Positions 1 to 2,678 of a stretch of 2,678 bases of DNA are shown in pieces. Source of the DNA: Giardia intestinalis (taxonomy: Eukaryota); assembly GCA_000002435.2 (NCBI GenBank), contig AACB03000022.1. The stretch is one strand, 5' to 3'. Within the stretch, counting starts at the first letter, position 1. Each line of letters opens with the position of its first letter. The notes beneath the pieces were generated by a model. The model saw only the letters and a list, made by a program, of their open reading frames with translations, ran no database searches and was not told the origin of the DNA. A program made the translations under genes and the position numbers.

Positions 1-982
1 CTGGGCCTTGGCGTCGTTCATGGCTCCGAGGTTTTCGGTCAGGGCAGAGACCCTGTCCTCAGCGGCGGCGAGCTGGGCGCGGGCGGTCTGCAGGGCGTCC
101 TGGGCCTCCGCCAGCTGAGCCGCGAGGGCATCTCGCTCGGCCTCCAGATTCTTGTGCTCGGCCTCCAGAGCTGCGCCTCGTCGAGGGCCTTATCGAGGGC
201 CGCACGGGCCTCATCGCGCTCGGCCTCTGCAGCACGCACGTCGGCTCAAGGCGGCGGATGGCCTCGTCGCCGCCCTGCGCCTGCTGTGCCTTGGCGCGGA
301 ACTTCTCTCGGCGGCATCGGCGAGGGCCTCTGTGCCTGCTGCTGCGTGTGCCTCGAGCTCGGCGATTTTGGCGCGGGCGTCGGCAAGCCTTTCTTCGGCG
401 GCCTTGGCCTGAGCTCCAGCTCTGCAGCGCGCTCTGCAAGCGCCTCTGCGTCGCGAGCACGCACGGCATCTTCGGCCGCCTGCTCGCGGAGGCGCGCCAG
501 CTCCTCGGAGAGATCCTCGAGCTGGGCCGCCTTGAGCTGGGCGTCTTCCTGGTGGGCGGCGGCCTGCTCGCGCGCTTCACGGAGCGCCGCTGCGTTCTCG
601 GCTGCGTCGCGGCGGAGGGCTGCAAGCTCCTGCTGAAGCTGCTGCGCGGCGTCGCCGTGGTCGGCAATCCCGTCGATCGCCTCTGCAAGCGCCTTCTCGC
701 GGGCCTCGAGCTTGTCTGTAAGGGCGGCGCTTTCGTCTTCGAGGCGACGGATCCTGTTCTGGGCGTCCTCGAGCGCGCCGTCTGTAGCGCTTCTTTTGAG
801 GTCCATGGCAGTAAGCTGGCGCTCGCGGTCCCGGACCTCCTCTGCTCGCGCTTCGGCCTTGCGGCCAGCGATTGAAGGGCACTCTCCAGCTCGTCGACGC
901 GGTTGCGCAGCCGTGCCGTCTTGGCGGCGCTTTCTTCTGCTTGCTCTGCCTTGCGGCTGCCTCGTCCTCCAGGGCTTGAATC
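1..982. repeat. Copy A of the long direct repeat, truncated by the window start. It is homologous to 1697..2678.
   Basis: Base-by-base comparison: identical to 1697..2678 except for indels at about 175 (-g), 245 (-c), 306-307 (+ct), 414 (-c), 426 (-a) and 842 (+c), plus four sites where B carries the change. There are no substitutions. Confidence 0.95.
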
Positions 983-2678
983 CGCGTTCTGGCGGCCTCG
1001 ACACTGGCCGTTGTTCGGGAAAGTTCGTCACTCAGCTGGCCGATCTCCTTGTCCTTTGCATCAAGGGTGGCATGGAGGTCATCTCGCTCGGCCTCGAGTT
1101 GAACGATGCGCTCTGCAGCGCCTTCATTGTCTTGCGCACGTAGTTGTTGAAGCTCGCGCTCGCGGTTGTCTGCCTCCTCGCGAAGTCTTTCTGCCTCATT
1201 CCGGAGCATGTCAAGCGCCACTGTCTTCTCATCGAGCTCGCCCTGCTTTTGCTCCAGCTCCTTCCTAAGAGCGCTTGCTTCAATAGTATATAATTTGAGT
1301 ATCTGACATCTGTGATTTAAGCTCACTAACAAAATCTTCCAACCGTTGAGTACGTTCTTTGGAATCGTTCGCTCTTTCCTCTGATGCCTTATTTAATTTT
1401 TTCAGGTCTGCTACCTCTGTCAAAAGTTCCTTTTTGTCGCGCTCGAGTTGAGCCACGCGATCAACAAGATCTTGAGATTCCTCTGCCTCTAGTTTCATAG
1501 TGGCAATTTCATCCATTTGTGCATTTAAGTTATCCAATAGCTCCGCCATCTGAATTTCATTGGCTTGTGCCTCATGGGTTCGTCTGGCAAATTCCATCTG
1601 GGACGCGACAAGCGTCTGCTGGAGTTGGATGATCTCCTCTTGGTGCTGGCGAATCGCTTGTCGAAGATCTGGGATGGTATCCTGCATCTCGCGGATCTGG
1701 GCCTTGGCGTCGTTCATGGCTCCGAGGTTTTCGGTCAGGGCAGAGACCCTGTCCTCAGCGGCGGCGAGCTGGGCGCGGGCGGTCTGCAGGGCGTCCTGGG
1801 CCTCCGCCAGCTGAGCCGCGAGGGCATCTCGCTCGGCCTCCAGATTCTTGTGCTCGGCCTCCAGAGCTGCGGCCTCGTCGAGGGCCTTATCGAGGGCCGC
1901 ACGGGCCTCATCGCGCTCGGCCTCTGCAGCACGCACGTCGGCCTCAAGGCGGCGGATGGCCTCGTCGCCGCCCTGCGCCTGCTGTGCCTTGGCGCGGAAC
2001 TTCTCGGCGGCATCGGCGAGGGCCTCTGTGCCTGCTGCTGCGTGTGCCTCGAGCTCGGCGATTTTGGCGCGGGCGTCGGCAAGCCTTTCTTCGGCGGCCT
2101 TGGCCTGAGCCTCCAGCTCTGCAAGCGCGCTCTGCAAGCGCCTCTGCGTCGCGAGCACGCACGGCATCTTCGGCCGCCTGCTCGCGGAGGCGCGCCAGCT
2201 CCTCGGAGAGATCCTCGAGCTGGGCCGCCTTGAGCTGGGCGTCTTCCTGGTGGGCGGCGGCCTGCTCGCGCGCTTCACGGAGCGCCGCTGCGTTCTCGGC
2301 TGCGTCGCGGCGGAGGGCTGCAAGCTCCTGCTGAAGCTGCTGCGCGGCGTCGCCGTGGTCGGCAATCCGTCGATCGCCTCTGCAAGCGCCTTCTCGCGGG
2401 CCTCGAGCTTGTCTGTAAGGGCGGCGCTTTCGTCTTCGAGGCGACGGATCCTGTTCTGGGCGTCCTCGAGCGCGCCGTCTGTAAGCGCTTCTTTTGAGGT
2501 CCATGGCAGTAAGCTGGCGCTCGCGGTCCCGGACCTCCTTGCTCGCGCTTCGGCCTTGCGGCCAGCGATTGAAGGGCACTCTCCAGCTCGTCGACGCGGT
2601 TGCGCAGCCGTGCCGTCTTGGCGGGCTTTCTTCTGCTTGCTCTGCCCTTGCGGCTGCCTCGTCCTCCAGGGCTTGAAT
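1..2678 (-). CDS. Internal fragment (both ends open) of a giant, tandemly repetitive coiled-coil protein gene. The reading frame is interrupted by about a dozen 1-2 nt indels, so it looks either frameshifted/pseudogene-like or laden with indel errors.
   Basis: All six minus-strand ORFs in the track (39..239, 59..688, 246..1031, 577..1332, 1280..2365, 1944..2579) contain long heptad-like A/E/R/L/Q/D/K-rich segments typical of alpha-helical coiled coils. Each of these segments is flanked by P/R/S/T-rich 'wrong-frame' sequence at the exact positions where the two repeat copies differ by an indel. Sense blocks in different frames abut one another and together tile the whole window. The plus-strand ORFs translate to L/G/S/R low-complexity mirror images (GAG->CTC, GCC->GGC). 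No start codon context or terminator is visible. Confidence 0.7.
411..872 (-). CDS. Sense-frame block of about 154 aa in repeat copy A. It is the sense part of track ORF 246..1031.
   Basis: Translation IAGRKAEARAEEVRDRERQLTAMDLKRSATDGALEDAQNRIRRLEDESAALTDKLEAREKALAEAIDGIADHGDAAQQLQQELAALRRDAAENAAALREAREQAAAHQEDAQLKAAQLEDLSEELARLREQAAEDAVRARDAEALAERAAELEL. The corresponding stretch of copy B is split by two compensating indels at about 2484 and 2368. Confidence 0.65.
949..1299 (-). CDS. Sense-frame block of about 117 aa of the same coiled-coil gene. It is the sense part of track ORF 577..1332.
   Basis: Translation LKLYTIEASALRKELEQKQGELDEKTVALDMLRNEAERLREEADNRERELQQLRAQDNEGAAERIVQLEAERDDLHATLDAKDKEIGQLSDELSRTTASVEAARTRIQALEDEAAAR. 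It continues the heptad pattern directly after the block ending at 1283, one frame over. Confidence 0.65.
1283..1570. other. Low-GC compositional island (roughly 40% GC) embedded in coding sequence that is otherwise about 70-80% GC.
   Basis: Hand counts of 60-bp blocks: 1321-1380 is about 43%, 1381-1440 about 38%, 1501-1560 about 37%. For comparison, 61-120 is about 80% and 481-540 about 72%. The flanks 1000-1283 and 1570-1750 are intermediate at about 55-60%. The minus-strand coiled-coil frame stays open across the island. Confidence 0.85.
1283..2128 (-). CDS. Longest uninterrupted sense-frame block, about 282 aa, of the coiled-coil gene. It is the sense portion of track ORF 1280..2365; the first 79 aa of that ORF are out of frame.
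   Basis: Translation ALAELEAQAKAAEERLADARAKIAELEAHAAAGTEALADAAEKFRAKAQQAQGGDEAIRRLEADVRAAEAERDEARAALDKALDEAAALEAEHKNLEAERDALAAQLAEAQDALQTARAQLAAAEDRVSALTENLGAMNDAKAQIREMQDTIPDLRQ...RLEDFVSELKSQMSDTQIIYY*. The block runs without a stop through both the GC-rich DNA and the ~40%-GC DNA. Its terminal TGA at 1280-1282 is probably not a real C-terminus (see findings). Confidence 0.75.
2117..2142. repeat. Local 13+13 nt tandem micro-repeat ctctgcaagcgcg|ctctgcaagcgcc. In copy A (420..444) it is 12+13 nt.
   Basis: Seen directly in the sequence. On the sense strand the 12-nt core gcgcttgcagag encodes A-L-A-E in both units, but the units are 13 nt apart. A frame change therefore sits here in copy B and not in copy A. 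Confidence 0.8.
2124..2366 (-). CDS. Sense-frame block of about 81 aa in repeat copy B. It is the sense part of track ORF 1944..2579.
   Basis: Translation IADHGDAAQQLQQELAALRRDAAENAAALREAREQAAAHQEDAQLKAAQLEDLSEELARLREQAAEDAVRARDAEALAERA, identical to the matching part of copy A. It is bounded by indel sites at about 2368 and about 2126. Confidence 0.55.

Follow-up and report, generated by a model that had tools for sequence, protein, structure and literature searches.

The window analysed here, a stretch of DNA of 2,678 nt, carries two long copies of one repeat that differ only by short indels, each of which breaks a reading frame in one copy, and the question is whether a gene has decayed in the organism or whether its frame was broken on the way to the deposited sequence. 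With a probability of about 0.85, the window is a piece of a long in-frame tandem repeat in a giant coiled-coil gene of a parasite of the G. duodenalis group, and the copy-specific indels are sequencing or assembly errors.

Structure of the repeat

The whole window (1-2678, minus strand) is filled by 1.58 tandem units of an in-frame repeat with a period of approximately 1,697 nt in the raw sequence, and nothing else is present. The coding strand is the minus strand, and the true frame runs through without start or stop; the window is an internal segment of a giant gene for a coiled-coil protein. Copy A occupies 1-981 and copy B 1697-2678, both on the minus strand, while the segment between them (982-1696, minus strand) is the part of the unit found once in the window. 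GC content ranges from 36% to 74%, and the segment present once contains a low-GC stretch (36% at 1276-1425). The repeat begins at base 1, not at 171, where an earlier note on this DNA had placed it.

Global alignment of copies A and B gave 10 indel events and no substitution over 981 nt, at the same sites that the earlier note had listed when it first described an indel-only pattern. Five events are specific to copy A and break the frame there, including the deletion of a G at 174-175 (GG in B at 1871-1872), deletions of a C at 244-245 (CC in B), at 413-414 (CC in B at 2110-2111) and at 948-950 (CCC in B at 2644-2646), and a TC/CT insertion at 306-307 that turns TCTC into TCTCTC. The other five break the frame in copy B. 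These are an inserted A at 2123-2124 (A 425/426), where A becomes AA and a perfect local tandem of 13 nt is created, a second inserted A at 2483-2484 (A 785/786), again A to AA, a C deleted at 2366-2368 (CCC in A at 668-670), and the loss of a singleton C at 2539-2540 (TCT in A at 841-843) and at 2624-2625 (GCG in A at 927-929). The events are thus split 5 to 5 between the copies, at approximately 0.5% per base, and deletions outnumber insertions by 7 to 3. Even if half of the real differences between copies were indels, the probability that all 10 would be indels is at most 1e-3.

The frame is kept by one copy and broken by the other at every one of the 10 sites, one more than the nine of the earlier count. 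When the frame-keeping variant is chosen at every site, both copies become 983 nt long and are one identical sequence.

Reading frame and the two remaining frameshifts

The expectation that a simple consensus of A and B would rebuild an almost continuous frame held in that the copies converge on a single sequence, but two frameshifts remain. One is common to both copies, at 860-863 in A and 2557-2560 in B, where one nucleotide is missing between LQSLAA and KAEARAEEV; its simplest repair is GG -> G in CCTTGCGGCC. The other lies at 1285-1310 in the single-copy part, where one extra nucleotide between SQMSDTQ and LYTIEAS makes an apparent stop at 1280-1282, and its likeliest cause is TTT for TT at 1294-1296. 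Once the consensus has been taken and these two shifts have been repaired, the unit is 1,698 nt long, or 3 x 566 codons, its frame stays open across the unit junctions, and the window, after 12 frame repairs in all, reads as 894 codons with no stop.

ORF length was considered as evidence for the frame and was dropped. Off-frames are also open for 300-450 codons in the GC-rich DNA of the window, and the frame was therefore assigned from composition and homology. Composition-based frame tracking found 12 switches that cover all of the listed sites, one switch standing for two adjacent shifts of copy B. When the raw window was aligned to the G. muris protein TNJ27669.1 with frameshifts allowed, the alignment covered all 2,678 nt and likewise placed 12 shifts, none farther than 17 nt from where a shift was expected.

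The repaired translation is high in Ala, Glu, Leu, Arg and Gln, and the stalk that it encodes is predicted to be a coiled coil, as judged from this composition together with homology. Pfam searches of the window returned only matches of coiled-coil type (ATG16, Rod_CreS and others), all weak and below the cut-off, and no Rfam family was matched.

Relatives in Giardia

The closest relative of the window repeat is GSB_151937 (ESU43523.1), a partial hypothetical protein of G. duodenalis assemblage B isolate GS, the identifier of which was not found in the papers searched. Its residues 1-168 are approximately 90% identical to the copy-B reading of the window, and it represents the terminal, incomplete unit of an array of this kind. 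Unlike the window, the GS protein leaves the repeat past TLVASQ and continues into a unique C-terminus of 277 aa, a stop and the next gene. It is located at the very end of a 67.5-kb contig that ends within the repeat, so that the array itself is unassembled there. At the DNA level it is 84.6% identical to copy B, with 70 substitutions and one in-frame 9-nt gap, indicating that divergence in this gene is dominated by substitutions and preserves the frame; the earlier note had likewise expected substitutions to dominate real divergence between repeats. Alignment of the GS sequence to copy A, over a shorter span, needs 4 gap openings against 1 with copy B, which is in keeping with the indels of copy A at 175, 245 and 306-307.

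When positions 414-872 (minus strand) were used as query, TNJ27669.1 (A0A4Z1T577) was the sole match among 1.84 billion representatives (E=2e-22, in 5 stretches). This G. muris protein, named 'axoneme-associated protein', is 4,580 aa long and has an Ank_2 head (PF12796) followed by coiled coil. Its stalk is an array of 5.18 units of 537 aa (1,611 nt) without a single DNA mismatch over 8.3 kb, located on a 1.3-Mb contig between the ankyrin head and a unique tail. Alignment of the repaired 566-aa unit with that of G. muris extends over their full length, at 38% identity (E=1e-109) and gap-free across the shared frameshift, and the two have the motif DAK.QIREMQD.(I/V)PDLRQA..QHQ.EI.QLQQ in common. 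Both genes encode a giant stalk, predicted to be coiled coil, of long, perfectly identical and collinear in-frame tandem units, and by sequence comparison the window gene is an orthologue of the G. muris ankyrin-plus-coiled-coil protein. They differ in the length of the unit (537 aa against 566 aa), in GC content, which is even in G. muris (55-68%) and ranges from 36% to 74% in the window, and in that the G. muris gene is intact and free of frameshifts. Moreover, an ankyrin head and a C-terminal tail are known in G. muris, whereas the window consists of internal repeat units only.

Other searches added no further relative. No plasmid or phage sequence matched the whole window in Megablast, and no record with exactly the sequence of the 465-aa edge ORF was found. 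When contigs from metagenomes and prokaryotic genomes were scanned by back-translated protein, the yield was either nothing or one coiled-coil noise match at 33%. The rest of the unit retrieved nothing in a word-indexed protein search, and no orthologue from G. duodenalis WB, DH or P15 was obtained. Viral, metagenome and genome contigs contained no exact copy of a 34-mer of the window (1297-1330); this 34-mer reaches into the suspected error site near 1294-1306, and that alone could block a match.

Origin of the indels

The copy-specific indels contradict both the conserved frame and the homologues, and they cancel between the copies, which is the behaviour of consensus errors. We infer that the repeat units are most likely identical in the organism, through concerted evolution or a recent expansion, and that the absence of substitutions between A and B would follow from this identity, as in the G. 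muris array. The 10 copy-specific indels of 1-2 nt would then be consensus errors from the sequencing or assembly of an unresolvable repeat, that is, noise superimposed on identical units, and the gene is most likely intact. The suspicion in the earlier note that the frameshifts are probably artifacts is thus supported by the frame logic and by the comparisons with G. duodenalis and G. muris.

The platform behind such errors is less clearly marked. Seven of the 10 events alter a run of 1-3 nt, 2 remove singleton bases and 1 inserts a dinucleotide, so the description of all 10 as homopolymer or dinucleotide indels applies to 8 (a run of 2-3 nt or a dinucleotide repeat) and fails for 842/2540 and 928/2625, a singleton C in each case. 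Five of the 7 deletions fall inside runs of at least 2 nt, compared with 42% expected (P=0.11), and each of the 3 insertions is duplicative, repeating the base or dinucleotide beside it (P=0.03 if insertion were uniform). Length changes that become more frequent in longer runs, as in 454 or Ion-type data, were not found, and none of the three T4 runs differs between A and B. The homopolymer signature is therefore weak, and low-coverage 454 reads, an unpolished long-read consensus or Sanger compressions are possible sources. The indels resemble the residual errors of 454 and long-read repeat assemblies in being indel-only, deletion-biased (7/10), frame-breaking and present at approximately 0.5% per base, and in their location in a repeat beyond the reach of short-read polishing; they differ in that the long homopolymers of the window are spared, two are losses of singletons, and one error is present in both copies. 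In other Giardia assemblies, genes were left without annotation where they had putative 454 frameshifts (PMC4570179), and frame-breaking indels were corrected in the PacBio assembly of G. muris (PMC7641422).

If the indels were instead real, the window would hold a recently decayed pseudogene, or units that differ by slippage, possibly between alleles of a tetraploid genome. The duplicative nature of all 3 insertions is what replication slippage would produce, and a frameshift found in both copies fits a real mutation spread through the array. Such an origin would have to account for 10 frame-breaking indels without any substitution, split evenly 5 to 5 and cancelling to one common sequence, in a gene whose real divergence runs at 70 substitutions to one in-frame gap and whose orthologous array in G. 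muris has zero differences between units; the coiled-coil signal and the collinearity with G. muris also persist along the whole unit. Real indels are thus improbable as a general explanation. The shared frameshift (860-863, 2557-2560) deserves separate mention, since errors arising independently at the observed rate are expected to coincide only 0.025 times. It does not fit independent random errors well, and either a context-specific error or a real mutation is needed. Also against the error reading, the single-copy part has 1 frameshift where 3.6 are expected (P=0.12). That at least this shared shift is real and was spread by concerted evolution, or more widely that slippage indels truly distinguish the units, is given little credence, a shade less than real indels in general. 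Were the shared shift real, the giant head-stalk gene of this isolate would be inactivated in every unit or would depend on recoding.

Deliberate or simulated corruption, with random indels put into a duplicated sequence, would also give an indel-only pattern at approximately 0.5% per base, and it could explain why the run enrichment of deletions is not significant (P=0.11), why the longest runs are intact and why the window has no exact match in any collection searched. It is nevertheless very unlikely. Random insertion would seldom duplicate the neighbouring base or dinucleotide 3 times out of 3 (P=0.03 under uniform insertion), a frameshift common to both copies is unexpected from independent corruption, and the same pattern is ordinary in low-coverage or unpolished Giardia assemblies (PMC4570179, PMC7641422). 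The window has the same sequence at its two ends, and its unit once repaired is a stop-free multiple of 3, as would be the case in a small circular element of approximately 1.7 kb that carries an endless ORF and was read more than once around or with terminal redundancy. The orthologous units, however, form chromosomal tandem arrays within long genes, on a 1.3-Mb contig in G. muris, and in G. duodenalis GS_B the last unit is followed by unique C-terminal sequence, a stop and then the next gene. As the orthologous arrays are chromosomal and joined to unique sequence, this highly improbable reading was rejected.

Significance for Giardia assemblies and head-stalk proteins

With consensus errors as the preferred explanation, the value of these results lies mainly in quality control: the frameshifts of the window are not to be taken as pseudogenisation, and neither a circular element nor an exotic repeat should be read into the contig.

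GASP-180 and the head-stalk proteins of Giardia combine ankyrin repeats with coiled coil and belong to the axonemes of the anterior flagella. The window gene is linked to this family through TNJ27669.1, a homologue that is named 'axoneme-associated protein' and has coiled coil behind an Ank_2 head; the window unit retrieved no annotated GASP-180 protein of G. duodenalis, and the likeness to GASP-180 runs through the name and architecture of the G. muris orthologue. GASP-180 has been localised to flagellar axonemes (PMC13315228), a GASP-180 gene showed excess read depth in 454 Giardia assemblies (PMC4570179), and a published table, if it is read correctly, suggests that the GASP-180 genes of WB are GC-rich (66.6%) and exceed 4 kb (PMC10711314). 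Long identical units break short-read assemblies, so that such units are absent or truncated in annotated G. duodenalis proteomes. From public data, head-stalk or axoneme-associated proteins are known to contain very long, perfectly homogenised in-frame tandem units, of 566 aa here and 537 aa in G. muris.

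Differences between the two repeat copies

Repeat finding and global alignment showed that copy A (1-981) comes again as copy B (1697-2678), and the window consists of nothing but 1.58 units of a repeat whose period is about 1697 nt and which starts at base 1. The gapless match blocks detected by the repeat finder in the window switch in spacing among 1696, 1697 and 1698 nt. In the global alignment, the copies differ by exactly 10 indel events and 0 substitutions, reproducing the count and sites reported in the earlier note. Eight of the 10 events are length changes of 2-3-nt runs or of a TC dinucleotide, and two are deletions of a singleton C (842/2540 and 928/2625). 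All three insertions duplicate the adjacent base or dinucleotide (P=0.03), five of the seven deletions lie within runs of at least 2, in which 42% of bases are found (P=0.11), and the repeated part has three T4 runs, all of them alike in A and B. Since the context enrichment is weak and two events remove a singleton C, the strong signal is "indels only" rather than "homopolymers"; the homopolymer or dinucleotide signature proposed earlier is corrected on these two points. The B-specific extra A at 2124 (window 2116-2147; compare 418-448) changes GCTCTGCAGCGC to GCTCTGCAAGCGC, identical to the next 13-mer, resulting in a perfect 2.5-copy 13-nt tandem in copy B. This neighbour-copying error looks like a consensus or alignment artefact.

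Reading frame of the repeat unit

The coding strand is the minus strand, and its product is rich in Ala, Glu, Leu, Arg and Gln and of coiled-coil type. Because the DNA has a GC content of 65-74% across most of the window, wrong frames are likewise open for hundreds of codons, and ORF length is therefore unusable as evidence here. When the coiled-coil frame is read through, each of the 10 sites keeps it in one copy and breaks it in the other. The breaks lie at 175, 245, 306-307, 414 and 949 in copy A, and at 2124, 2368, 2484, 2540 and 2625 in copy B; the principle had been recognized previously, with a count of nine. When repaired separately, both copies give the same 983-nt sequence. In the raw window, a Viterbi path through the three frames of the minus strand, trained on composition, contains 12 frame switches, covering all 10 copy-specific indel sites and two more minus-strand frameshifts: one shared by both copies (~860-863 and 2557-2560, merged in copy B with the adjacent shift at 2540), and one in the single-copy part (~1285-1310), which produces an apparent stop at 1280-1282. 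Addition of one base at the shared site and removal of one from TTT at 1294-1296 yield a 1698-nt unit (566 codons). The A/B consensus, expected to form a nearly continuous ORF, is indeed a common sequence but leaves these two frameshifts; after both are fixed, the whole window reads as 894 stop-free codons, with 12 and 28 stops in the remaining two frames.

Orthologues in Giardia

Plasmids and phages gave no DNA match to the window, and an exact 34-mer is absent from viral, metagenome and prokaryotic genome collections. A word-indexed protein search found a sole protein, GSB_151937 (ESU43523.1) of G. duodenalis isolate GS, encoded at the extreme end of a 67.5-kb contig (GCA_000498735.1). Residues 1-168 match the copy-B reading at ~90% identity; beyond them the protein leaves the repeat and continues into a unique C-terminal part, followed by a stop codon and then the next gene. 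Its DNA aligns to copy B with 84.6% identity, 70 mismatches and one gap, which is 9 nt long and in frame; genuine divergence in this gene is therefore substitution-dominated and frame-preserving. The A/B differences show the opposite pattern. The alignment with copy A, which ends at the window edge, has four gap openings versus one for copy B, as expected because copy A has three indels in that stretch. The GS contig (AHHH01000046.1) stops inside a repeat unit (position 1 of this locus) and the annotated protein is labelled partial; the array breaks this assembly, whose annotated proteome lacks the full gene. Protein database searches with the repeat unit or the unique C-terminus retrieved no orthologues from further G. 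duodenalis isolates (WB, DH, P15), in whose database proteomes the gene appears absent or unannotated.

Exhaustive HMMER searching with the unrepaired in-frame segment 414-872 (minus strand) matched one of 1.84 billion proteins, TNJ27669.1, "Axoneme-associated protein [Giardia muris]" (4580 aa). This protein combines an ankyrin head (PF12796) at the N-terminus with a giant coiled coil, and its gene lies on a 1.3-Mb chromosome contig (CM016927.1, positions 2001-15743 of the locus examined). The protein carries 5.18 tandem units of 537 aa, 100% identical in protein and DNA (1611 nt, 0 mismatches), with perfect periodicity over 8.3 kb. Such identity marks extreme intragenic repeat homogenisation, or possibly copies made identical in assembly polishing. 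The repaired 566-aa window unit aligns end to end with the G. muris unit (38% identity, E=1e-109), gap-free over the shared frameshift (LESALQSLAAKAEARAEEVRDRERQL versus LEGELDSLKTNADTRAKEVMNREAQL). The raw minus strand was also aligned with tandem G. muris units by frameshift-aware dynamic programming, a check independent of the A/B comparison. This alignment spans the full 2678 nt, with 365 of 839 aligned codons identical, and needs 12 frameshifts, at 2627, 2544, 2498, 2365, 2114, 1306, 954, 865, 431, 294, 247 and 176, all at most 17 nt from sites predicted by the A/B comparison or the frame path. GC is even in the G. muris unit (55-68%), whereas it drops from ~72% to 36% within the window unit (1276-1425). 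A comparable drop is seen in the GS orthologue (positions 1-1000), where GC is 66% over the initial 500 nt and 40% over those that follow.

Origin of the frameshifts

The gene represents a known type, the head-stalk proteins of Giardia with ankyrin repeats, a coiled coil and long perfect repeats. The window is an internal segment of a long tandem array, in frame and homogenised, within such a giant head-stalk/axoneme-associated gene. Units of such arrays are identical in a well-polished assembly, as in G. muris, which accounts for the complete lack of A/B substitutions that the earlier note had held to need explaining were the indels real. The best explanation for the copy-specific indels is that they are consensus errors, made in a repeat which the assembler was unable to resolve or polish: they are evenly divided between the copies, all break the frame, cancel to one consensus and are contradicted by both orthologues. 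The frameshifts are most likely not a biological feature, and their earlier reading as technical artefacts is supported by frame logic, the common consensus and the two orthologues.

The shared frameshift is the sole one not explained by independent random error, since only 0.025 coincident error sites are expected. Relative to the frame that G. muris conserves, both copies lack the same single base (860-863, 2557-2560). Either a miscall tied to its context (GG to G in CCTTGCGGCC) or a genuine mutation carried by all units is required. That the gene is a genuine pseudogene, or that its units truly differ, is improbable. The single-copy frameshift has no second copy in the window, and in the alignment with G. 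muris a gap of 10 residues falls at precisely this point; the single-copy part holds one frameshift against an expectation of 3.6 at an equal rate, a non-significant deficit (P=0.12). Least probable is a small circle carrying an endless ORF, an idea that conflicts with the chromosomal setting of both orthologues. Deliberate corruption of the sequence ranks between these two and is very unlikely.

Consensus errors of this type are ordinary for Giardia according to the literature. The PacBio assembly of G. muris had to be corrected with Illumina data, "mostly the indels ... to cause frame-shifts" (PMC7641422). For assemblage AII isolates assembled from 454 data (8x and 30x coverage), excess read depth was found at a GASP-180 gene, and genes with putative 454 frameshifts were left unannotated (PMC4570179). 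The error spectrum of the window departs from the long-homopolymer profile that is classic for 454/Ion. GASP-180 belongs to the head-stalk proteins of Giardia and to the anterior flagella (PMC13315228), and the GASP-180 genes of WB apparently have a GC content of ~66.6%, on an uncertain reading of the published table (PMC10711314).
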